A stretch of DNA of 64,000 nt from Elusimicrobiota bacterium (lineage in GTDB: Bacteria; Elusimicrobiota; Elusimicrobia; Elusimicrobiales; UBA9959): the NCBI GenBank assembly GCA_036574205.1, contig JAINCQ010000037.1, forward strand, positions 19,541-83,540. Direction: 5' to 3'. Both the position numbers and the translations under genes were made by a program. Under the pieces are notes generated by a model. It was not told where the DNA came from and searched no databases. It was given only the letters and a program-made list of their open reading frames with translations. Within the stretch, counting starts at the first letter, position 1; every line of letters begins with the position of its first letter. This document shows, one piece after another, positions 4,453 through 44,552 of the stretch.

Positions 4453-5253
4453 ATGTTTAATTTTTTCCAAAAAAAAATAATTTGTGGTATTTTAAATATT
4501 ACCCCTGATTCTTTTTCTGATGGTGGGCTTTATAATACTTTGCCTAAAGCGCTTAAAAGAGCTGAAGAGATGATAGATGAGGGGGCAAGCTGGATTGATA
4601 TAGGTGGACAATCATCAAGGCCATTTTCTGAACCTATAAGCGAAGAAGAAGAGTTAAATAGGATTTTACCTGTTATTTCTGGCGTAAAAAAATTAAAAAA
4701 AGATATTATTATTTCAGTTGATACATATTATCCTGTTGTTGCGGATAGAGCAATTGAGGCTGGCGCTGATATAATAAATGATATAACCGGCGTTAGGAAT
4801 CAGAATATGGCGGATATTATTTTAAAGCGCAGAAAGCCAGTTGTAATAATGCATATGAAAGGAACGCCCAGGGATATGCAAGTTAATCCTTATTATGATG
4901 ATCTAATAGGTGAGATTTATGAGTTTTTTTACGATAGGATAAGATTTTTAAATTCAAAAGGATTTAGAGATATAATACTGGATCCAGGTATAGGCTTTGG
5001 TAAAACTGTTGAGCATAACATTTTAATTTTAAAAAATCTCAAGCAATTCAGACGATTGGGCTATCCCATTATGATAGGACCTTCAAGAAAATCATTTATA
5101 GGAAGCATCTGTGGAGAAAAAGATCCTAAAAAGAGAGTCAGTGGAACTATTGCAACCTGTCTTTTTTGCTATGATAGTGCGGATATATTCAGAGTTCATG
5201 ATGTATATGATTTAAGACAGGCTTTTTCAATTTTTGAAGAACTTAAAAAATGA
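4453..5253 (+). CDS. folP: Dihydropteroate synthase
   Basis: 266-aa ORF with GILNITPDSFSDGG, IDIGGQSSRP and ILDPGIGFGK motifs. Confidence 0.9.
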   Translation: MFNFFQKKIICGILNITPDSFSDGGLYNTLPKALKRAEEMIDEGASWIDIGGQSSRPFSEPISEEEELNRILPVISGVKKLKKDIIISVDTYYPVVADRAIEAGADIINDITGVRNQNMADIILKRRKPVVIMHMKGTPRDMQVNPYYDDLIGEIYEFFYDRIRFLNSKGFRDIILDPGIGFGKTVEHNILILKNLKQFRRLGYPIMIGPSRKSFIGSICGEKDPKKRVSGTIATCLFCYDSADIFRVHDVYDLRQAFSIFEELKK

Positions 5254-6944
5254 TTTATTCTTTCATCTCAATAGGGACAAACATCGGAGATAGAATTTAT
5301 AATATAAAAAAAGCGATAGATTTTATATCGCAAAAGAATCAAATAATAGATATTTCCTCTTTATATATAACAAAGCCTATGTATTATTTAAATCAACCTT
5401 ATTTTATAAATTGCGCTATCAAGATAAAAACGTCTTTGTCACCCTATAATCTTCTTAATTTTATCCTGGAGATTGAAAATAAAATGGGCAGGAAAAGGAG
5501 TTTTAAAAATTCACCGAGAATAATAGATCTTGATTTAATATATTATGGAGATTTGATTATAAAAAGCAAAAAACTTTTTATTCCACATCCAAAATTATAT
5601 GAAAGGGCTTTTGTTCTTATTCCTTTATCAGACATAGATAAGAATTTTTTAGATCCGCTTAAAAATAAAAAAATTGGAGATTTAGTAAAAAATTTGAGTT
5701 TTAATAACGATGAAATATTAAAGATTCCATCCAATTTTAAAGAAACTTTAAATTTTATTTCAAAAATTCCTCCAAGAAACGCTAATGATTTTAATACAAA
5801 ATACATTAAAAAAACTATAAAGTTGCTTGGAACTTCTCAAAATGATTGTGGAAAAGTTATTCATATAACAGGTTCATGCGGAAAAACTGCAACCGCTTTC
5901 TATATTGCAAAATTAATTCAAAGACTTGGATATAATGTTTGTATTTATACAAGTCCGCATATAATGGATATAAGAGAAAGAATTATTTTTAATGGAAAGA
6001 AGATTCCTAAAAAAATTTTTTATAAAAAAATTATTAAGGTAATCTCAGTAGCTCAATATTTGCATTCTTCATTTGAGTATATGACATTGATTGCTATAGA
6101 CTGGTTTTCAGAGTTAAAACCAGATTTTTCAATCATTGAAGTTGGCATGGGAGGAAAAAACGATGCTACAAATATATTTGAAAAAAGTATTTCTGTTTTT
6201 ACATCAATAACATTAGAACATAGTAACTGGCTTGGAAAAAATATTGAAGAGATAGCAAAAAATAAATCCGGGATAATAAAAAGCGGAAGTTTTGTTTTTA
6301 TTTCTGGATTTAATGAAAAGAAAGTGATTGAAGTGATAAAGAATATTGCAGATGCAAAAAAATGTGTTACTTATATATTTAACAGAAAAAACCTGATTGA
6401 AAATTCAAAAACAAATTCTTTTAAAAATATTAATCTTTCCTATGCTTTCTTTATTGTTAAAAAGTTACTAAATAAACTTCCTTCTTCTTTCATTATACCT
6501 CAGCTTCCTGCAAGACAAAAAGTTTTATCTTATAATGGAATAAAGTTTTTTTTCGATGGAGCTCATACAACTCTTTCAATGAAAATACTTTTAGAATATT
6601 TAAAAAAATTAGATTATAGAATTTGCCTGGCTTCTTTTTTAAAAGATAAAAGTCATAAAGATATTATAAATCTGATTTTAGAATCTGGAATTTTTGATAA
6701 AGTAATTCTTGTTAAAGGTACTTCCCAGAGGACTTTTAACCCTTACGATTATAGAGGCATTTCAAATGTAAAAATCTTTTCAAATCAGTTAAATGCTTTA
6801 AATTTTGCCCTTTCTTTTAAAAAAAACATAGTAGTTACTGGAAGCCTTTATTTTTGCGCCGATATCCTTGCTTTAATTAACGGTAAAAAGCCTTTACATC
6901 TTTTAGAACTTGCTATAGATCCTCAAAAACTAATAGCCAATTAA
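5250..6944 (+). CDS. Fusion of HPPK (FolK) and folylpolyglutamate/dihydrofolate synthase (FolC)
   Basis: 564-aa ORF. About the first 160 aa carry HPPK motifs (IGTNIGDR, PRIIDLDLIYY, IPHPKLYERAFVLIPL). The remainder is a Mur-ligase/FolC-type domain (IHITGSCGKTATAF P-loop, YTSPHIMDIRERI, EVGMGG). The start overlaps the folP stop by 4 nt. Confidence 0.8.
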   Translation: MIYSFISIGTNIGDRIYNIKKAIDFISQKNQIIDISSLYITKPMYYLNQPYFINCAIKIKTSLSPYNLLNFILEIENKMGRKRSFKNSPRIIDLDLIYYGDLIIKSKKLFIPHPKLYERAFVLIPLSDIDKNFLDPLKNKKIGDLVKNLSFNNDEILKIPSNFKETLNFISKIPPRNANDFNTKYIKKTIKLLGTSQNDCGKVIHITGSCGKTATAFYIAKLIQRLGYNVCIYTSPHIMDIRERIIFNGKKIPKKIFYKKIIKVISVAQYLHSSFEYMTLIAIDWFSELKPDFSIIEVGMGGKNDATNIFEKSISVFTSITLEHSNWLGKNIEEIAKNKSGIIKSGSFVFISGFNEKKVIEVIKNIADAKKCVTYIFNRKNLIENSKTNSFKNINLSYAFFIVKKLLNKLPSSFIIPQLPARQKVLSYNGIKFFFDGAHTTLSMKILLEYLKKLDYRICLASFLKDKSHKDIINLILESGIFDKVILVKGTSQRTFNPYDYRGISNVKIFSNQLNALNFALSFKKNIVVTGSLYFCADILALINGKKPLHLLELAIDPQKLIAN

Positions 6945-8014: not shown

Positions 8015-11000
8015 TTATCTTTCAATTGCCAGCTTTATTGTTTTTTTGCCAACCCTTGATTTTATAACACATAAATAAACTCCACTTCCAACAAGTTGTC
8101 CGCTTGAATTTTTCCCATGCCAGTAAGCTGTTCCAGTTGCATCTGCTGCTGTCTCATAAACTTTTTGTCCGCTTATTGTATATATTGTTAGTTTTGCATC
8201 ATCTGGAAGATTTGTTATCGTTATCATCCCCTGTCCTGGTCTATTTGGATAAAATGGATTTGGAAAAACTTTTATGTTATTTAAGTCTGAAGATGGCTGA
8301 ACTAAAATAAGCTGATATATGCTGAAATGATTTAATTCAGCAGTTATTTTCCTTAATCCTTCGTTTATTGTTGTTTTAACAGGTAGACATTGACCAGTCT
8401 GGGGATTATATCTTGCTAGAACAACTCTTGATTTATTTGTATGTATATCTGGTGGAGAGCTTGGATTTACTGCTTCTGATGAAAAGTAATCAAAAGTAAA
8501 GGTAATGGGAACATATGGTTGCTCATTTGCGTATATCCCAAATGTTATTGTACTTCCACCAAAAGTGTATCCACAGTTATTTGAATCTAATTTTGCTATA
8601 GCAATTGGTTGCGGGGTAGTAAAAGATTCTTTTGGAATAAATAATACAACAGGCCTGTTGTCTATTAAATTTCCGCTTATAGTTGTGTCCTCAGATGGGC
8701 TTGTAAGTCCTGATATTGAAGCAGGTGGGGCTCCTTGTGGCCCGGGAAGAGTTACAGCTGGCGTGGTTGTTTGTATCCTTGCTGTTTCAACTCCTTCAGC
8801 ATTTCTTGCGGCAACATCAAAATAATATGTAGTTCTTATCCATAATCCATTTACGGTGTAACTAGTATCTTTGTATTCACTTCCAAAAGGAATAGGGGTT
8901 GAGATAAAAGGCGATTCAAAACTTACACTCGTAGCTCTTAATTCGTATATTGTTTCAGGAGAATTTTCCTGAGGATCCCAGTTGACTGTTACACCGGTCA
9001 AAGAAACAGAAGATACATAAACCCTGGCAACTTCTTGAGCAAGAGTGTATTTTGAGCCAAGAGATGCTGCTTCCTCTGTCATCCTTCCCTCTTTATTTAT
9101 AGCATAAACTCTTGCGTAATATCTACGATTTGGTTTTAAATCTCTGGCATACTCTGAAACTATTGGCAGTGTTGTTGAATCAGGAGTAACCTCATAACTG
9201 GTATAATTTGAAAATGTTGGTGTTTCAGATATATCAAGCCTATATCTTGTATTTATGCCTTTTTCTATATCTGCATCATTTCCATTTGAATCCCAGCTTA
9301 CTTTAAAACTTCCTGTTGTTATGTATGTAAAAACATTTGGTTGAGCTGGGGATGGAACTGCGGCAAGCGTATAGACTGGCTCTGATATAGAAAAAGGTCC
9401 ATAAACAAGTTCTCCATATGTCTGGGCATCCTGTTTGTATGACCTTACTTTTACCTGATATGCGGTGTTGGTGGAAAGTCCAATCTGAGTATAATAAGGA
9501 TAAGATGTGGAACTTAAAAAGACTGAAACATCTATTGTAGATTTAAAAATAGGGTCATTTGGATCTATTCCTATACGGTATTCATATATTTCATATCCGC
9601 TAGCGCCACCGGCTTTGTTCCATGACCATTTGATTGATGTAGTTGTCATTGGTGTTCCACTGAGTCCAACTATATTTCCAACTGTTATTGTTGATACGGG
9701 AGTATTAAACGTTGACGACACCCCTGTACAGTTTTGATTTGGATTTTGAGTGTCATAAACAGTTTCTACTCCATTTCCATTTCTTGCCTTAACTCTGAAA
9801 TAATATCGGTTATTTGGTTCTAAGTTTCTTATAGTGAATTTTGTGTCTTTATAATTATTTACAAAAGACAATGCTACTGAATACTCTGAAAAATTAGGAT
9901 ATGTTGATATATCCACCCTATATGGTGTAAAATCTGGATTGTTCCCGTTTGAATCCCATTCTATTTCAACAGTGTCAAAACTGGCGTAATTTACCCTTGT
10001 ACATGAAGGCGGATTGGCTTTAGTATATACCGTACTTACTGCTACTGCAAATGTTGATGGATCTGAAAATCCGCCTATGTTATAACAACCAACTTTTATG
10101 CTTGATGGGGTATTTGGTAAAAGTCCCTGCTGGTAATATGTTGCAGGGGCGCTTAAAGGAGATGGAAATGGAACAGTTGTTATAAAAACATTTGAAGCAG
10201 AAAATATTGCAAAACCATTAGAATTGCCTTCAGTTTGTAAATTCCAGTTCCATCTTATACTGGTTGTGCTCGCTGATTCCTCTGCAACAAGGTTTGTTAT
10301 GGTGCAGATTGGTCTTGGTGTTGAAGCCTGAACCATATATCCATCAGAACAAATTCCAGCATTACAAACATAGAGATAATACCAACCATATGGAAGTTCT
10401 TGAGGAGTTGTTGGTGTTTTAACTATTATAGTTGAAAGAGTTACGTTCCAGTTTAATGCATTAAAAGTTGAGATATAAATCTGAGAAGAGAGATCTATCA
10501 TAAATTCATTATTTATTCCTCTTAAAATAACCCTTGGCTTTCCAAAATCTGATTGATGACCACCTGAACCTGAATTTGATGCATCTGAAACTGAATGTAG
10601 ATTTGAATATGAACTATAAATAGTAATATAATCTCCTCTATCAAATCTTAAGGTTGCGCTTGAGATATGAGGTTTTCTTGTTGTTAATGTGTCATAACCA
10701 TATATATCTGGTTCATCAAAAAGATAATATTTTCCTTTTACATTGTCGGTATAGTCTGTTCCAGTCCATCCGCCAGTAACCATAACATAATTGGATGGCA
10801 GAAGAACGCTTGAATGTCTTATTAATTTTTCGGTATCACCGAAAAGCGCTTCATTTCTTGAGTAATAAAAATCGGTTATAAAGTTTTTAGCCGTATATTC
10901 AATAAGGCTTCCAGATGTGATTTTTTCTCCTCCAGTAATTAATATCCTTTTATTTGGTAAAAGTATACTTGAATGGTTTGATACTTCTGCTGCAGATATA

Positions 11001-13996
11001 TCATCTTCTCCATCACCAAGTACTTGCCATGTAGATCCATTAAAAACCTCAACCTTATCTATTGTCCATTCGCCTCTATTTCCGCCAAAGATAAGGACCC
11101 GTCCATCATCCATTAAATGAGCGGTATGGGAATGTCTTTTATAATTTATACTTCCTGGTGAAGAAAATGTATTTGTGGCTGGATCATATATTTCATAACT
11201 TGATAAAACATCTGTTGCATTTATTCCACCAACTATTATAACTCTTCCATCTTTCATCAAAGTGGCGGTATGTTTTGTTCTTGGATTTGCCATGGAGCCA
11301 ACTGGAATAAAAATATTTGCTGTAGTTATAAAAAGCTCAGCTGAGCTCAAGTATGTTCCAGAAGAAACTCCGCCGGTTATAAGAACATTCCCATTTGGAA
11401 GGAGGGTTTGAGTGTGTCCAGCTCTTTTATAATTCATCCTGGCTGTTGGGACAAAGGTTTTAACTGAGGGATAATATATTTCTGCTGAATCAAGTGCTTG
11501 AGACTGATTGACATCTCCCTGAACTCCGCCTGTTATAAGAACAGTTCCATTTGGAAGAAGTGTGTCTCTATGATATGCTCTTGCTTCGGTCATTGTTGAG
11601 ACAATTGTCCATAAGTCAAGATATTTGTTATATTCTTCACAGATATCAAGGCTTTGTTTCCCGTCAGTTCCTCCACATACAATCACAGTCCCGTCGTTTA
11701 GAACTGTAGTTGTGTGATTAGCTCTTTTAACTTTAAGTCTTGAGAAATCCTTCCATTTATCAGATAATTGTTTAATAAGTAGGAAAGCTATGTTAGATGA
11801 ATAAAATGTCGGGTCAGTTCTAAGACAGTCATTAGCTGGATCTGATTCGCAGTTTCTTCCACCTCCTATAATTGGTGTCCCGGATTCTGATATGTTTCCA
11901 GTATGATCAAATATTGGGTATGGCTTAAGATAATCTAGAGTAAGTATTTCATCTGGATCAAAATAAAATTGATTAGTTTTTGGATTAAAGTATGTAATAT
12001 CAGAGAAAAGCATATCCCTTACAACAGCTCTTGATTCACCTGTATTTATTGTAACACCTTCACTAGGAGTATTGTAATAAATACCATCTGAAATAAAAGA
12101 AAGTTTTACTGTTAAAGAATTTATATTATTTCCGATAAGGCAGTTTTGTATTTCTGTGTTGTCTAAGGTATAATCTGTAGTATTGGATATCACTCCTGTA
12201 AGATTTGAAAATGTTGCACCTGGAAATAAAATATTTTGTCCTGAAACCGGTGCAATGGCATCTGAACTCATATCTCCTGCCGATAGTGTTAAATTGCATA
12301 AATCACTTGAAAAAGAAAGAGATTTAATAAACATTCTTCCTGTTATGTTATAGCCATTAAACATTTTTAATTCTTCAGGAAGTTGGAGCGTTGTGTTCCC
12401 AAGAGTTATACTACATCCCGCACAGTCAGAAAACTCTAAAATTTCTCCGCTTGGAATGCTCGGGGTTAAAGAGCTAAAATCAGCAGTTGAAATTTGAGGG
12501 GAATTTAAATTGGTTAATTCTAAAGGATAAAAATAAACTGTAGCGTTTACTTGTAATGGATCGGGGGAACTTTTAAGAACAAGATCAGCTTTTAATCTTC
12601 TTATTAAATTTCCATTTTCATCATAATATCCAACTGAGGCACCATCTAATTCTGCAGTAGTCTTGCCTAAGAATATATCCATATTTCCTATTTTTATTGA
12701 TGGTTTAGGTGGATTAGTAGGTGTGGGTGGTTCATAAAATATATCTCCGTTTATTATTCTTCCAGTAACTGGTCTTGAAAGTTCTAAATCTTCCTCAAAG
12801 CTTACTGTTCCAGATATTGGACCTGTTAGTATCCTTACATCAGACATATCTCCACTCATTTCCATAGATGAATAATCAAATGTTATAGGCGAGTATGAAG
12901 TCAATGAACGTGGCTGAAAGTATGTTACCGGTATATTTCCTCTTCCGCCAAATAATACGAGTATTCCATCAGGTTTTAACATGGAAAATTGATTTGAAAT
13001 TCTATATGGTAGAAGTTTATATTGATTGGCTTCTACTGGAACCCTTGCCCCATTTTTATCAAATATTTCCATAGCATCAACAAATCCCCATGTCCCATGA
13101 TTTTGTCCTTCTTGTATTTCTTGAGAATCATTATCTTTGCTTTCTATATCATAACCATTATATTCATTATAACCACCTATTATGGCAACATTGCTGTTAT
13201 TTAAAACAACAGCTGAATGATAGATTCTTGAAAAAAATAGAGGTTCTGGAGAAGGAGTAAAGCTATTCGTTATAGGGTCATATATCTCTTGAGTCGGAGT
13301 AAAAGTTGCTGGATTTCCAAGCTGGGTTATTCCACCTGACATCAATACCTTTCCATTAGAAAGAAGTGAAGCCGTGTGTCCAAACCTTGAAGATGTCATA
13401 TTTGGTCCAGATTTAAATTGAGTGGTTGATGTTATAAATATTTCACAAGAATTTGTTACAGTTCCAGCATTAGATTGTCCTCCACATATCAAGACATTTC
13501 CTGACTCAGGACCTACAGTTAAAAGCGTTGCTGTGTGCCCTGCTCTTTGCAATAACATAGTATTGACTATTGGAGAGCATGTATATGGTGGTGATGAAAG
13601 ACATATTTCAGCTGAGTTTGTTGGTGTTCCGGTTGATATTAGATTTTTTGGGAAGTTATTGGTATACGGTGAAGGTGGATTGGTTGGATAATGAAAAGAA
13701 ATTGATGTATAACCTCCTGCTACAAGAATTCTGCCATCTGGAAGCAATGTCATAGTATGATTTGTTCTTGAAGTATTTAGAGTTTTTGTCAGGAATGGTG
13801 TTCCACCTGCTGATGTTATTATAGGTGTTGAAATTTTTATTAAACATTGATTTGTAACAGTATTTATACCTGTAACCCCACCACATGTCATTGTATTTGC
13901 ATTTGGAAGAAGAACTGAAGCAGTGTTAAATTGAGAAAAAAGATTAACTGAACATAATAAGATAAACAGAAATAAAATATCCTTCATATTTTTCAT
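8015..13996 (-). CDS. Giant secreted Kelch-repeat / fibronectin-III protein with a T9SS-type (FlgD-Ig-like) C-terminal sorting domain
   Basis: 1993-aa ORF with a signal peptide. There are two blocks of Kelch-like blades (recurring R..HT.TLL.DGRVL..GG). Several FN3-like modules follow (W....GA..Y.., YYFRVKA.N..G). The last ~85 aa (VFPNPFYPN...LTIYTISGQKVY...GVYLCVIK...KLAIER; about nt 8018-8275) match the por-secretion C-terminal domain pattern. Confidence 0.75.
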   Translation of the reverse strand: MKNMKDILFLFILLCSVNLFSQFNTASVLLPNANTMTCGGVTGINTVTNQCLIKISTPIITSAGGTPFLTKTLNTSRTNHTMTLLPDGRILVAGGYTSISFHYPTNPPSPYTNNFPKNLISTGTPTNSAEICLSSPPYTCSPIVNTMLLQRAGHTATLLTVGPESGNVLICGGQSNAGTVTNSCEIFITSTTQFKSGPNMTSSRFGHTASLLSNGKVLMSGGITQLGNPATFTPTQEIYDPITNSFTPSPEPLFFSRIYHSAVVLNNSNVAIIGGYNEYNGYDIESKDNDSQEIQEGQNHGTWGFVDAMEIFDKNGARVPVEANQYKLLPYRISNQFSMLKPDGILVLFGGRGNIPVTYFQPRSLTSYSPITFDYSSMEMSGDMSDVRILTGPISGTVSFEEDLELSRPVTGRIINGDIFYEPPTPTNPPKPSIKIGNMDIFLGKTTAELDGASVGYYDENGNLIRRLKADLVLKSSPDPLQVNATVYFYPLELTNLNSPQISTADFSSLTPSIPSGEILEFSDCAGCSITLGNTTLQLPEELKMFNGYNITGRMFIKSLSFSSDLCNLTLSAGDMSSDAIAPVSGQNILFPGATFSNLTGVISNTTDYTLDNTEIQNCLIGNNINSLTVKLSFISDGIYYNTPSEGVTINTGESRAVVRDMLFSDITYFNPKTNQFYFDPDEILTLDYLKPYPIFDHTGNISESGTPIIGGGRNCESDPANDCLRTDPTFYSSNIAFLLIKQLSDKWKDFSRLKVKRANHTTTVLNDGTVIVCGGTDGKQSLDICEEYNKYLDLWTIVSTMTEARAYHRDTLLPNGTVLITGGVQGDVNQSQALDSAEIYYPSVKTFVPTARMNYKRAGHTQTLLPNGNVLITGGVSSGTYLSSAELFITTANIFIPVGSMANPRTKHTATLMKDGRVIIVGGINATDVLSSYEIYDPATNTFSSPGSINYKRHSHTAHLMDDGRVLIFGGNRGEWTIDKVEVFNGSTWQVLGDGEDDISAAEVSNHSSILLPNKRILITGGEKITSGSLIEYTAKNFITDFYYSRNEALFGDTEKLIRHSSVLLPSNYVMVTGGWTGTDYTDNVKGKYYLFDEPDIYGYDTLTTRKPHISSATLRFDRGDYITIYSSYSNLHSVSDASNSGSGGHQSDFGKPRVILRGINNEFMIDLSSQIYISTFNALNWNVTLSTIIVKTPTTPQELPYGWYYLYVCNAGICSDGYMVQASTPRPICTITNLVAEESASTTSIRWNWNLQTEGNSNGFAIFSASNVFITTVPFPSPLSAPATYYQQGLLPNTPSSIKVGCYNIGGFSDPSTFAVAVSTVYTKANPPSCTRVNYASFDTVEIEWDSNGNNPDFTPYRVDISTYPNFSEYSVALSFVNNYKDTKFTIRNLEPNNRYYFRVKARNGNGVETVYDTQNPNQNCTGVSSTFNTPVSTITVGNIVGLSGTPMTTTSIKWSWNKAGGASGYEIYEYRIGIDPNDPIFKSTIDVSVFLSSTSYPYYTQIGLSTNTAYQVKVRSYKQDAQTYGELVYGPFSISEPVYTLAAVPSPAQPNVFTYITTGSFKVSWDSNGNDADIEKGINTRYRLDISETPTFSNYTSYEVTPDSTTLPIVSEYARDLKPNRRYYARVYAINKEGRMTEEAASLGSKYTLAQEVARVYVSSVSLTGVTVNWDPQENSPETIYELRATSVSFESPFISTPIPFGSEYKDTSYTVNGLWIRTTYYFDVAARNAEGVETARIQTTTPAVTLPGPQGAPPASISGLTSPSEDTTISGNLIDNRPVVLFIPKESFTTPQPIAIAKLDSNNCGYTFGGSTITFGIYANEQPYVPITFTFDYFSSEAVNPSSPPDIHTNKSRVVLARYNPQTGQCLPVKTTINEGLRKITAELNHFSIYQLILVQPSSDLNNIKVFPNPFYPNRPGQGMITITNLPDDAKLTIYTISGQKVYETAADATGTAYWHGKNSSGQLVGSGVYLCVIKSRVGKKTIKLAIER

Positions 13997-14631: not shown

Positions 14632-14654
14632 CCTCTCTCCTTTTTTGGAGAGGG
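14632..14654. other. Imperfect hairpin: cctctctcc / tttttt / ggagaggg
   Basis: Read directly. It has 6 perfect base pairs (ctctcc/ggagag) plus partial extension around a T6 loop. Confidence 0.5.
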
Positions 14655-14692
14655 TTAGGGGGAGGAAATTTATTTTTCACCCTCATCCTTCA

Positions 14693-14715
14693 CCTTCCCC
14701 CATCAAGGGGGAAGG
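14693..14715. other. Perfect 9-bp G/C hairpin: ccttccccc / atcaa / gggggaagg
   Basis: Read directly. On the plus strand it is followed by aattttaatat, so it could act as an intrinsic terminator for plus-strand read-through, but no plus-strand gene lies upstream. Confidence 0.5.
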
Positions 14716-14756
14716 AATTTTAATATCTCAAAAGAACTCTCTCAGAGATAAATTTT

Positions 14757-15012
14757 GCTCACCGCTCATTTTTTCTCAAACCCTTGCTCCTCGCAAAACT
14801 GTAAGCGCAAGTTTTGCTGCGGACTTTCAAGTCACGCATAACCTTGTCGGCTTGCGCGACCCCGCCTCGTTCGCCTGCATTGCCCAAAGCGAACTGCGGC
14901 CTTGCGAACAGCACGCGAAACCGTTTGAGGTTTCGCTCTAAAGGCAGTCCTCACCCGTGCAAAGCCAAACCATTGGGTTTGCTCAGAACCAGCAAGCGGG
15001 CGATGGGAATCG
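14757..15012 (-). repeat. GC-rich composite repeat unit L1 (256 nt)
   Basis: L1 shares two identical boxes with unit L2: a 19-nt box gctcaccgctcattttttc (14757-14775) and a 35-nt box tttgctcagaaccagcaagcgggcgatgggaatcg (14978-15012). The 35-nt box ends in an 18-nt copy of the tRNA-Gly 3' end. L1 contains two copies of the two-hairpin module. Confidence 0.8.
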
Positions 15013-15028
15013 GTTGCAAATAAAATTC

Positions 15029-15157
15029 GCTCACCGCTCATTTTTTCGCAACCCGCCCCTCGTCCGACTGTATAGCCAAAGTCGGACTGCGGGCTTTCGA
15101 TTCCCACGCAAAGCCTATCGGCTTTGCTCAGAACCAGCAAGCGGGCGATGGGAATCG
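15029..15157 (-). repeat. GC-rich composite repeat unit L2 (129 nt)
   Basis: L2 has the same 19-nt box (15029-15047) and 35-nt box (15123-15157) as L1, with one copy of the two-hairpin module between them. Confidence 0.8.
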
Positions 15158-15251
15158 AACCCTATGCCGCTATGGTTGCTCAAATAGAGCTTCCCAGCGG
15201 GCGATGGGAATCGAACCCTGTGCCGCTATGGTCGCTCAAATAGAGCTTCCC
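15140..15251 (-). repeat. Two tandem 56-bp units, each carrying a copy of the 3'-terminal 23 nt of tRNA-Gly
   Basis: Units 15140-15195 and 15196-15251 differ at 2 positions. Each has agcgggcgatgggaatcgaaccc (identical to tRNA positions 15252-15274) followed by a 33-nt segment ending in agagcttccc. Confidence 0.85.
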
Positions 15252-15322
15252 AGCGGGCGATGGGAATCGAACCCACGTCTAAAGCTTGGGAAGCTCTCGT
15301 TCTACCATTGAACTACGCCCGC
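15252..15322 (-). tRNA. tRNA-Gly (anticodon CCC), 71 nt, no encoded CCA
   Basis: The reverse complement reads GCGGGCG-TA-GTTC-AATGGTA-GAAC-G-AGAGC-TTCCCAA-GCTTT-AGAC-GTGGG-TTCGATT-CCCAT-CGCCCGC-T. This is a full cloverleaf, nearly identical over the 5' half to E. coli tRNA-Gly(CCC) as I remember it. The 3' flank is GGG, not CCA. Confidence 0.92.
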
Positions 15323-42905: not shown

Positions 42906-44552
42906 TCATGCTAATATTAAAACAAAAAAAGGAAGATCAGTTAAAAACTCCGATAAGAGTATATCTGGTGTTTTTTTCTTTTTAAGTGCATATATTAGAA
43001 GAATGTAATATACAGGCAAAATTATAATAAATAAATTAAGCTTTATATAAAACATTATTGATGAGATGAGGATTACAAAAACTAATACATTAATTAGCAT
43101 AAAAGTTTTTTCCTCTCCAATTGCTGAATATATATTTTCATTTGATATTATCATATCATTATATTTCTGGAAAACACTTATTAAAACGCTTCTTAGAGTG
43201 GATACGACAAACACAAATAGGAAGGTAAGATAAAAAACTTTTGATCCGATCTTCCCGCATGATATTGCTGGAATAAATGTTGTCATATAGCACCATCCAA
43301 AAGCTATGAACATATCTTTTATACCCGGGATTTTTATTTTGTTTTTAATCTCTTTATATTTTACTCCCGCAAAAATAAAAATAAAAATCAAAAAAGAATA
43401 AAACACTCCTTTGGTGGTAGATATTGCAATTGAGATAAAAATTAAAAGATACGAGAAGTATTTTATCTCTTTTGAATATTTAAGAAAAATCATTTTTTTT
43501 ATATTATCTTCTAAAAATTCTTTTTCAAGGTTTCTATTTATTATGTGAATTACCATAACTGATATCGCAATTGCAGATGCAAGAGGAAATTCAATATGGT
43601 TTTTAAAAGATTTATATACGAGGGAAATCAGACCAAATGCGGCGAAACCGGTAAATATTCCAGTTGAAACAAGAACCCTGAATAATTTAATAAATTTTTT
43701 TTCCCTAAATACCATTTCTTTTATTTTCTTTTCTACTCTTTCAATCATCCATCCAGGGGTTGATGCGCCTGCTGTTATAAAAAGCAGATTTACATTCTCA
43801 AATATTTCTGGAGTTATCTCATTTTCATTTTCAACAAGAATTGATTTTTTGGAAAGGGTTTTCGTTATCTGGTAAAGCCTTTGTGTATTAGCTGAGTGTT
43901 TGCCCCCTATTATTATTACAAGATCTGAAATTCTGGAAAACTCAATTGTTTCTTTTTGTCTTAATTTTGTTGGCGTGCATATGGTATTTGAAATAATAAG
44001 TTCTGAAACCTTTGTCCTTATTATCTTCACAATTTTGAAGAATAATTCTTCTTCCTGAGTTGTTTGAGAGACAAGATTTGCTTTTTCTATGTTTGGCAAT
44101 CTTCTGGCATCTTCTTCAGATGTTATTATAAAATAGTTTTCACCTGCATATCCTTTAAGCCCTATAACCTCAGCATGTTCAGGATCTCCAAGTATTATAG
44201 TTGTATATCCTTTTTTAGAATATTTTGTTATTGTGTTATGAACATTTTTAACAAGAGGACAGGTAGCATCTACAACCTCTATGCCCGAGTTTCTGATTTC
44301 TTCTTCAATTTTTGGAGGTACACCATGCGCCCTTATAACAAGTATAGAGTTTTTCGGATCTTTTATTTCTTTTATATCATTGATTGACTCAATCCCGCGT
44401 TCTTTCAGGTTTTTTATAACATCATTGTTGTGAATTAATGGACCGAAAGTATAAATTTTTTTGGTTGTTTTTTGCGAAAGTTCTATTACCTTCTTTATAG
44501 CATCGTTAACCCCTGGACAGAATCCAGCGTTTTTTGCAACTATAATCTTCAC
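42906..44552 (-). CDS. ispH: IspH (HMBPP reductase) fused to a ~260-aa polytopic membrane domain
   Basis: 548-aa ORF. About the first 280 aa are a complete IspH with three cluster cysteines (GFCPGV, ATCPLV, NTICTPT) and the SANTQRL motif. Seven or eight predicted TM helices follow, in a distantly UbiA-like motif arrangement (IINRNLEKEFLED; KYKEIKNKIKIPGIKD; KYNDMIISNENIYSAIG). Confidence 0.75.
   Translation of the reverse strand: MKIIVAKNAGFCPGVNDAIKKVIELSQKTTKKIYTFGPLIHNNDVIKNLKERGIESINDIKEIKDPKNSILVIRAHGVPPKIEEEIRNSGIEVVDATCPLVKNVHNTITKYSKKGYTTIILGDPEHAEVIGLKGYAGENYFIITSEEDARRLPNIEKANLVSQTTQEEELFFKIVKIIRTKVSELIISNTICTPTKLRQKETIEFSRISDLVIIIGGKHSANTQRLYQITKTLSKKSILVENENEITPEIFENVNLLFITAGASTPGWMIERVEKKIKEMVFREKKFIKLFRVLVSTGIFTGFAAFGLISLVYKSFKNHIEFPLASAIAISVMVIHIINRNLEKEFLEDNIKKMIFLKYSKEIKYFSYLLIFISIAISTTKGVFYSFLIFIFIFAGVKYKEIKNKIKIPGIKDMFIAFGWCYMTTFIPAISCGKIGSKVFYLTFLFVFVVSTLRSVLISVFQKYNDMIISNENIYSAIGEEKTFMLINVLVFVILISSIMFYIKLNLFIIILPVYYILLIYALKKKKTPDILLSEFLTDLPFFVLILA

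Follow-up and report, generated by a model that had tools for sequence, protein, structure and literature searches.

In a 64,000-nucleotide window of an Elusimicrobiota bacterium (GenBank assembly GCA_036574205.1, contig JAINCQ010000037.1, positions 19,541 to 83,540 of the forward strand), a GC-rich, hairpin-dense island at window positions 14632-15251 lies directly 3' of a tRNA-Gly(CCC) gene and on the same strand as the tRNA. This island is probably a partly decayed tandem array of non-autonomous, mobile (selfish) structured elements that home to tRNA genes and whose tRNA-matched segments serve in target recognition. Its two large units very probably belong to one repeat family, unit A as an intact member and unit B as a decayed one. 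The family occurs immediately behind tRNA genes in AT-rich genomes of one clade, the sole named carrier being labelled Elusimicrobium. Its members have a common architecture with covarying helices, match the particular tRNA behind which they stand, occur in multiple copies at multiple tRNA genes with both empty and occupied sites, and have a core conserved above the trailer. We favor mobility because the elements are found at many tRNAs, vary in presence and subtype, include a non-cognate copy in the window array, tolerate decay and are accompanied by a target duplication. The element family is small (about 125-190 nt), protein-less and highly structured, and it appears to be new, as no description of such an element was found in the literature and other resources searched.

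The array behind tRNA-Gly(CCC)

The island has a G+C content of 0.52, compared with a window average of 0.317, and is the sole 400-nt bin above 0.42 in the 64 kb; the hand counts (36/60, 34/60 and 13/60 G+C) from which a first-pass annotation of the sequence had called it GC-rich were reproduced exactly. Both ARAGORN and Rfam put tRNA-Gly(CCC) at 15322..15252 on the minus strand, so the island indeed lies directly behind it and on its strand. The stretch from the tRNA to the start of a CBM48-like gene (14555) contains no credible open reading frame (ORF), and the ORFs of the island itself (51-102 amino acids) have no Pfam match, in agreement with the non-coding status proposed earlier. The 731-nt stretch folds with z = -8.5 against dinucleotide shuffles, and at least nine discrete hairpins could be assigned coordinates, where at least seven strong ones had been noticed before. 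The first-pass annotation saw no obvious terminator between the tRNA and the island, but the terminator scan returned two weak hairpin-plus-T sites at the junctions of tRNA and 56-bp unit. Judging from the sequence, co-transcription of the island with the tRNA is plausible. The earlier interpretation as a structured RNA holds insofar as the island is non-coding and its helices show compensatory changes, but the island is an array of small repeat units and not one long RNA. The loose analogy with a single large non-coding RNA such as GOLLD or ROOL has to be abandoned, because the tandem units of ~125-190 nt belong to a multi-copy family behind many tRNA genes.

On the tRNA strand, the order is the tRNA, two 56-bp units, unit A, a copy of tRNA nt 56-73, unit B (B1 and B2) and two unrelated hairpins, with the following parts:

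15252..15322, minus: tRNA-Gly(CCC), anchor of the array (ARAGORN; Rfam tRNA, 71.6 bits)
15140..15251, minus: two 56-bp tandem units (TRF period 56, 2.4 copies, 97% identity)
15218-15251 and 15162-15195, minus: 34-nt spacers of the 56-bp units
15196-15217 and 15140-15161, minus: 22-nt exact copies of tRNA nt 52-73 in the 56-bp units
15013..15139, minus: unit A, intact element of ~127 nt (covariance-model match 14998-15142, 146 bits, E 7e-41)
15128-15139, minus: leader of unit A
15108-15127, minus: P0 of unit A, an 8-bp hairpin
15096-15107, minus: T-loop-antisense segment of unit A, GTGGGAATCGAA
15087-15095, minus: AGCCCGCAG of unit A (junction AG-CCC-GCAG)
15063-15086, minus: P2 hairpin of unit A
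15053-15062, minus: CGAGGGGCGG of unit A (CGA-GGG-GCGG)
15013-15052, minus: P3 hairpin of unit A, with the conserved loop containing the 19-nt box
14995..15012, minus: copy of tRNA nt 56-73, CGATTCCCATCGCCCGCT, forming P1 with the antisense segment of unit A in the model alignment
14745-14994, minus: unit B, composite and degenerate (B1 + B2)
14856..14994, minus: unit B1, a 3'-truncated, altered element with a 35-nt start block in common with unit A
14983-14994, minus: leader of unit B1
14959-14982, minus: P0 of unit B1
14915-14936, minus: extra hairpin of unit B1, in place of the antisense segment
14894-14901, minus: GGCCGCAG of unit B1
14870-14893, minus: P2 of unit B1
14856-14869, minus: CGAGGCGGGGTCGC of unit B1
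14745..14855, minus: unit B2, a degenerate element (covariance-model match 14726-14872, 69 bits, P1 and P3 pairs broken)
14836-14855, minus: decayed P0 of unit B2
14826-14835, minus: antisense segment of unit B2, GTGACTTGAA
14817-14825, minus: AGTCCGCAG of unit B2
14794-14816, minus: P2 of unit B2
14745-14777, minus: conserved loop of unit B2
14693-14715, minus: hairpin CCTTCCCCC-TTGAT-GGGGGAAGG, between the array and the CBM48-like gene
14632-14654, minus: hairpin CCCTCTCC-AAAAAA-GGAGAGAGG, between the array and the CBM48-like gene

The boxes that the first-pass annotation had assigned to the two large units are both present and identical, the 19-nt box at 14757-14775 and 15029-15047 and the 35-nt block in units A and B. 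The tandem 56-bp units that it described were recovered, and so were its copies of the tRNA 3' end, of which the island has three additional ones where none is expected by chance. In unit A, GTGGGAATCGAA includes the reverse complement of TTCGATTCCCA, which is the T-loop of tRNA-Gly(CCC) plus four bases of the 3' strand of the T-stem, and is exactly complementary to this tRNA over 11 nt. Unit B1 has no P3 and received no full-copy score from the models. Unit B2 is followed by no tRNA copy, and its GTGACTTGAA suits a TTCAAGTCAC T-loop, not tRNA-Gly, with only 3 nt complementary to the local tRNA; on the evidence of this segment, B2 appears to be an element derived from another tRNA.

The 56-bp units may represent a separate scar, as their repeat boundary differs (nt 52) and their 34-mer is unique: it has no other occurrence in the window or in any fetched locus, and its junctions with the tRNA copy are absent from the viral contigs scanned. 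The two 34-nt spacers are 94% identical and there are only 2.4 units; the 56-bp repeat is therefore a tandem duplication, and a CRISPR array was rejected. An origin of the 34-mer by internal deletion of the element was also rejected, the similarities being too weak. The 34-nt spacer opens with GGGAAGCTC, the reverse complement of nt 28-36 of tRNA-Gly (GAGCTTCCC, anticodon stem and loop); this pairing is predicted by RNAfold, although at 9 nt it may be due to chance. The hairpins at 14632-14715 are strong, contain polypyrimidine/polypurine runs and lie outside the element family; they have Rfam matches at noise level only, and no counterpart in the syntenic contig L045 described below.

An element family matched to its tRNAs

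The 19-nt box, which the first-pass annotation had proposed as a probe for further copies, was searched exactly over species-representative genomes and metagenome contigs. It found 10 copies on 6 contigs of one metagenome-assembled genome (MAG; Elusimicrobium minutum TT109_36_37) besides chance matches in coding DNA in the former, and 18 further copies from several samples in the latter, the copies of both sets all lying behind tRNAs. A covariance model built from 18 units and run alongside nhmmer yielded 35 matches in the family loci, some of them partial or weak, with exactly two in the window and none in the empty-site relatives. All copies are on the tRNA strand and, among complete copies with the tRNA in view, the first element begins 25-100 nt after the tRNA gene. 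Elements are present at 14 different tRNA genes, their tRNAs being Gly(CCC, GCC), His, Met, Leu(CAG, CAA, TAA), Glu, Arg(GCG, TCT), Lys, Val and Ser, and some other tRNAs on the same contigs are element-free. There are two size variants, a short one of ~125 nt and a long one of ~187 nt with one additional hairpin, and the order is short then long at several tRNAs.

Three further observations concern these loci. The tRNA(CAT) with an element at L020:3256-3332 and L048:4826-4902 encodes CCA, unlike the other targeted tRNAs, and the 20-nt duplicated segment includes CCA. Behind the first element at tRNA-Gly(GCC), a weak 32-bit covariance match (L052:1514-1626, plus strand; L015, ~5500-5400, minus strand) is probably a heavily decayed further copy with leader and P0 intact and no core. 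An AT-rich short repeat, AAAGTTCAATGTTTAAAGTT / GTTTAAAGTTCAAAGTTTAATGTT, lies just downstream of several arrays (L024:1370-1460, minus; L015:5280-5390, minus; L020:3650-3760, plus; L046; L051); it has the opposite orientation in L020 and is absent from the window.

Read 5' to 3' on the tRNA strand, the element consists of a leader, P0, the antisense segment, the junction AAAG-UCC-GCAG, P2, CGAGGAGCGG and P3, the last carrying a nearly invariant 30-nt loop region. The antisense segment (10-12 nt) is the reverse complement of the local T-loop and the start of the 3' strand of the T-stem, and P3 is followed by a duplicate of the local tRNA from nt 57 of the T-loop (or 56 in some copies) to the tRNA end. 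The antisense segment pairs with the start of this duplicate to form helix P1, which closes a three-way junction. When contiguous complementarity was counted from T54 of each tRNA for the segment before the conserved AAAG, the mean was 10.1 nt for cognate tRNAs and 5.4 nt for non-cognate ones, and the observed sum was reached in 0/100,000 permutations. At a tRNA-Val with a G-U pair in the T-stem, the segment follows the complement of the 3' strand and not the sequence of the 5' strand, and it is therefore truly antisense.

The tRNA copy measures 17-18 nt, or 20 nt at tRNAs that encode CCA. At the final copy of an array, the match extends a further 0-26 nt into the locus-specific trailer (Glu 26, His 22, Arg-TCT 22, Val 10), and the repeat must therefore have been copied from the target and not carried by the element. 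The insertion junction lies directly after the TTC of the T-loop in all loci, and the total duplication is variable in length (17-43 nt).

Repeats of tRNA ends could alternatively be scars of ordinary integrases, that is, attL/attR repeats left by deleted islands or prophages that targeted the T-loop. Direct repeats from the T-loop to the tRNA 3' end were reportedly described by Williams in 2002 as the classic tyrosine-integrase att signature, and the first tRNA position in the repeats here is nt 57 in every locus, with nt 52 taking its place in the 56-bp units. It is also common for elements to accumulate in tandem at tRNAs, and the 56-bp units, with their copies of nt 52-73 and their unique 34-mer, fit such scars better than the element family. 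However, the same scaffold is found at 14 tRNA genes, each time with a matching tRNA end and antisense segment, and it is structurally constrained, unlike deletion debris; the locus-specific trailer in the repeats again points to copying from the target. No integrase is present among the window ORFs checked and none recurs in the loci, and a BLASTN search of the island against plasmids and phages gave no match. Integrase scars are thus a very improbable source of the family. Two related candidates were rejected: an island with one integrase for one tRNA, because no integrase is found among 37 window ORFs and 14 tRNA genes are targeted, and a repeat brought in as attP, because repeats at Glu, His, Arg(TCT) and Val contain 10-26 nt of locus-specific trailer. 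Scans of viral contigs with the 19-nt box, a 17-nt start box and both 34-mer junctions gave nothing or chance matches in coding DNA, and a metagenome scan with the junction of tRNA end and start box gave 0 matches.

The fold of the element is supported by covariation. RNAalifold and explicit pair counts back the helices P1, P2, P3 and a helix of 3 bp whose UCC/GGA can be replaced by CCC/GGG or UUC/GAA. Paired cells amount to 97.7% compared with 86.7% in shuffles, double-change cells to 59 compared with 18.3, and the covariation score is 0.33 but only 0.04-0.10 when the partners are slid. At least 8 different complementary stems occur at P0 and at least 9 at P2. In 17/18 units the predicted fold of the sense strand is better than that of the antisense strand, by 9.7 kcal/mol, an asymmetry that would favor a sense RNA, though invariant positions supply much of the difference. 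The copies at Val and Met have a further pairing, between tRNA nt 65-70 and the six bases that precede P0; the resulting stacked helix is like an acceptor stem plus T-stem.

Known classes of RNA and repeat were compared with this structure. In the island, only tRNA passes against Rfam 15 (including GOLLD, ROOL, HEARO, tmRNA and ribozymes) at E<=10, the rest scoring at most 22 bits against thresholds of 37-128, and in four other loci at E<=1 only tRNAs and nothing on the element were found; the first-pass statement that the island resembles no recognised RNA family therefore stands. A coding gene or leader peptide was rejected, as ORFs from the conserved ATG range from 6 to 100 amino acids and have only the first 10 residues in common. 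A miniature inverted-repeat transposable element was rejected too, as the ends (TGCT... / ...GCGGGAG) are not inverted repeats and the duplication, at 17-43 nt, is variable. By eye, the conserved letters do not fit hammerhead or K-turn junctions. The antisense segment spans nt 56|57 like the internal guide of a group I/II intron, but the element matches no intron model and has much too small a core.

Turnover of the arrays and their possible origin

Relatives found via the CBM48-like protein keep the gene order folE, tRNA-Gly(CCC), CBM gene, and in them the gap between tRNA and CBM gene is only 21-75 nt; the island of the window is therefore an insertion. The site at tRNA-Gly(CCC) is empty in L002 and L005. 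Synteny with the window is also seen in contig L045 (FolE 80%, CCA enzyme 62%, CBM 48% identity), which has one element of a different subtype at this tRNA, so the site was occupied independently or its occupant was replaced. The sample of L045 also holds near-identical counterparts of the Elusimicrobium MAG loci at similar coverage.

It is also evident that arrays are remodelled by unequal recombination. A tandem gain is seen at tRNA-Val, where one strain contains an additional, exact unit. At tRNA-Met, two strains with flanks of 97-99% identity carry two trailer paralogues (~65% identical) in opposite order, which is explained by differential unit loss from a two-unit array. The element cores at tRNA-Met differ by a single base despite these ~65%-identical trailers, and core, antisense segment and tRNA copy are therefore under purifying selection or homogenised. 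At tRNA-Leu(CAG), two strains (L022 and L053) differ solely in the P2 hairpin, which indicates exchange between copies. Decayed copies include unit B of the window and the third copy in L022. An independent Logan assembly of the same organism (SRR15502205; L001:1-200) ends inside the hairpin at 14693-14715, ~45 nt beyond the conserved loop of unit B, a break that suggests further element copies elsewhere in the genome. In practice, where an AT-rich genome has a GC-rich, hairpin-dense island behind a tRNA, this can be a repeat-element array; the one described here broke an independent assembly.

If the units are mobile elements, transcription starting at the tRNA promoter would read through into them and yield a folded sense RNA, and they would be moved by an enzyme encoded elsewhere. 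Their tRNA-matched segments would recognise the target by base pairing, and the target would be duplicated from nt 57 onwards as part of the insertion. On anatomy, a target-primed route mediated by RNA may be slightly preferable to a DNA recombinase, because the 3' junction is fixed (nt 56|57), the duplication on the 5' side is variable and the 3' tail is complementary to the bottom strand of the target. We regard it as rather doubtful that the elements act as natural guides for DNA insertion. As such guide RNAs, they would grip both strands of the tRNA gene beside GTTC, using the sense copy of nt 57-73 together with the antisense T-loop segment, and would program an enzyme (a reverse transcriptase, a recombinase or a nuclease-derived protein) to insert the element at the tRNA 3' end.

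Several observations weigh against mobility. We infer mobility from distribution only, the elements having been linked to no transposase, integrase, reverse transcriptase or RNA-guided protein. There is no clean pair of empty and occupied sites between near-identical strains; close strains differ by tandemly duplicated units and by units lost through recombination. Near-identical cores at different tRNAs could reflect gene conversion and not recent transposition. Because T-loops are alike, 1-2 substitutions retarget the antisense segment, and the matching could merely keep P1. The array ends often carry 5' and not 3' fragments of the element, and 5' fragments are not predicted by target-primed reverse transcription. 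Finally, all members were recruited via one exact 19-mer, which biases by construction both the breadth of the family and the invariance of its loop; the 19-mer is invariant because the members were found through it.

The same conservation and structure could be explained by an RNA module that serves the host, each tRNA gene having its own trailing RNA and the copies evolving in concert. Such an RNA might act as a guide whose 3' 17 nt (tRNA nt 57-73, after the universal GTTC) direct an RNA-guided protein to the tRNA gene, or it might act in tRNA maturation or tRNA protection. At Met, the trailer is far less conserved than the core, antisense segment and tRNA copy of the same unit; folding is better for the sense than for the antisense strand, four helices covary, the Val and Met copies have a tRNA-like stacked helix, and a scaffold with a 3' target copy resembles TnpB omega RNAs and the 17-bp truncated repeat-spacer of type V-K transposons. 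Yet the presence of elements at the same tRNA varies among relatives (none, one or an array), several tRNAs on the same contigs are element-free, and decay is tolerated, as in unit B of the window and the third copy in L022. P1 would moreover conceal the seed of the supposed guide, and no candidate partner protein lies nearby. We therefore consider a service to the host unlikely, but the conservation at Met makes it a rival to be taken seriously.

The search for partner enzymes bears on one more explanation. The 37 window ORFs checked are all housekeeping or have no assigned function, and include no integrase, transposase, reverse transcriptase, TnpA/TnpB, cas12k or tnsB/C/tniQ; an all-against-all comparison of 303 ORFs in the family loci recovered only orthologous synteny and no recurrent gene beside the arrays. 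A miniature IS200/IS605-type derivative (palindrome-associated, with an omega-RNA scaffold) would insert as single-stranded DNA 3' of GGTTC, its left end bringing a replacement tRNA 3' end. Consistent with this, there are subterminal hairpins at both ends (P0 near the 5' end, P3 at the 3' end), the elements are without exception oriented like the tRNA, and the junction is fixed after TTC, with a conserved pentanucleotide immediately before it; the foot of the terminal hairpin has a guide-like segment that could pair with both junctions, and the 3' flank would act as guide. IS200/IS605 insertion makes no duplication, and the tRNA-end repeat could belong to the left end of the element, but the duplication of trailer sequence argues against this, a locus-specific trailer in the repeat being unexpected. 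A jump to a different tRNA would also yield a chimeric, dead tRNA, and the guide here is 10-12 nt, not 4-5 nt. TnpA and TnpB are absent among the 37 window ORFs and no gene recurs in the loci. Rfam gave no match (E<=10 in the window, E<=1 in four loci), the content of Rfam 15 in omega-RNA and IS605 models not having been checked. All this makes a derivative of this type very improbable.

Apart from the array, the window contains three other genes of note. At 8015-13996 (minus) a 1993-amino-acid protein has many Kelch repeats and fibronectin-III domains and a weak C-terminal match to CHU_C (type IX secretion) below the Pfam cut-off, and it is kept beside the CBM48-like gene in relatives (49% identity in L045). 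At 5250-6944 (plus), a 564-amino-acid ORF appears to be a fusion of HPPK with a Mur-ligase-type (FolC-like) domain. Another apparent fusion is a 548-amino-acid LytB/IspH ORF at 42906-44552 (minus), whose Pfam match is limited to residues 3-278.

Comparison with known systems

Like REP/BIME, ERIC, Correia and RUP repeats, the elements are short, GC-rich, hairpin-forming, multi-copy and intergenic and have no ORF; those repeats, however, are scattered and lack target-matched segments, whereas the elements are exclusive to tRNA 3' ends. They share strong structure with GOLLD and ROOL, which are often near tRNAs, but those are single RNAs of 500-800 nt and not a tandem array of small units. If the elements serve the host, they would be structured RNAs of a tRNA-linked class in which every tRNA has a copy of its own, for which we know of no precedent.

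Integrative elements that target tRNAs (tyrosine-integrase islands, cis-mobilisable remnants and tycheposon-type arrays) likewise sit at tRNA 3' ends, with direct repeats from the T-loop to the end, tandem arrays and leftover partial tRNA copies. Unlike them, the element described here is 125-190 nt long and has no gene, and one scaffold serves 14 tRNA genes; its repeats contain trailer sequence, it has an internal T-loop-antisense segment and covarying helices, and no integrase was found with it.

In type V-K CRISPR-associated transposons (CAST), the att guide is a truncated repeat with a 17-bp spacer matching a tRNA gene (Hsieh and Peters, bioRxiv 10.1101/2021.02.06.429022). The element similarly has a short structured handle followed by a 17-nt exact match to the tRNA gene near a GTN motif, and lies downstream of the tRNA in fixed orientation. 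Its match covers nt 57-73 (56-73 in some) and is preceded by G53-T54-T55(-C56); the exact match is thus 17-18 nt, with GTT (nt 53-55) directly adjacent only where it starts at nt 56. The type V-K guides lie within 20-kb cyanobacterial transposons with cas12k and tnsBCQ and a 5-bp duplication about 60 bp away (bioRxiv 10.1101/2021.02.06.429022), whereas here there are no such genes, each copy stands alone by the target it matches, and the would-be seed is paired in P1. A position inside a type V-K CAST was rejected, as cas12k and tnsB/C/tniQ are absent among the window ORFs checked and no genes recur in the loci.

TnpB/IscB omega RNAs and IS200/IS605 miniatures resemble the element in having a scaffold of ~110-130 nt whose 3' end runs into the target-matching flank; they also share terminal hairpins with it, and protein-less copies of them are known. 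They differ in making no target duplication, in a guide pairing of 4-5 nt to the cleavage site and in having no tie to tRNAs, and no Rfam model matches the element. The bridge (seek) RNAs of IS110/IS1111 have segments matching both strands of the DNA target, according to Durrant et al. 2024 (PMC11208160), and stand-alone RNA copies are reported for ISPpu9 (PMC12288879). Bridge RNAs match both target strands as the element does, but have two internal loops, an adjacent recombinase gene and no long duplication, whereas the two matching segments of the element pair together. An IS110 bridge RNA was rejected, there being no adjacent recombinase gene and the matched segments pairing into one helix and not forming internal loops. 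If the elements are mobile, their target specificity would lie in base pairs and not in a protein, the property that makes CRISPR transposons and bridge RNAs useful; if guide-RNA insertion were true, they would constitute a new compact, base-pair-programmed DNA insertion system with tRNA genes as safe harbours.

Eukaryotic short interspersed nuclear elements (SINEs) and other target-primed retroposons are likewise small, non-autonomous, tied to tRNAs and repeatedly inserted at a favoured site, with a fixed 3' junction and a target duplication of variable length. Unlike SINEs, the element has no A-rich tail, no 5'-truncated copies and no linked reverse transcriptase. To our knowledge, no bacterial target-primed system is known besides group II introns. 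If mobile, the elements behind these tRNA genes would be a bacterial counterpart of tRNA safe-harbour targeting, reduced to about 130 nt.

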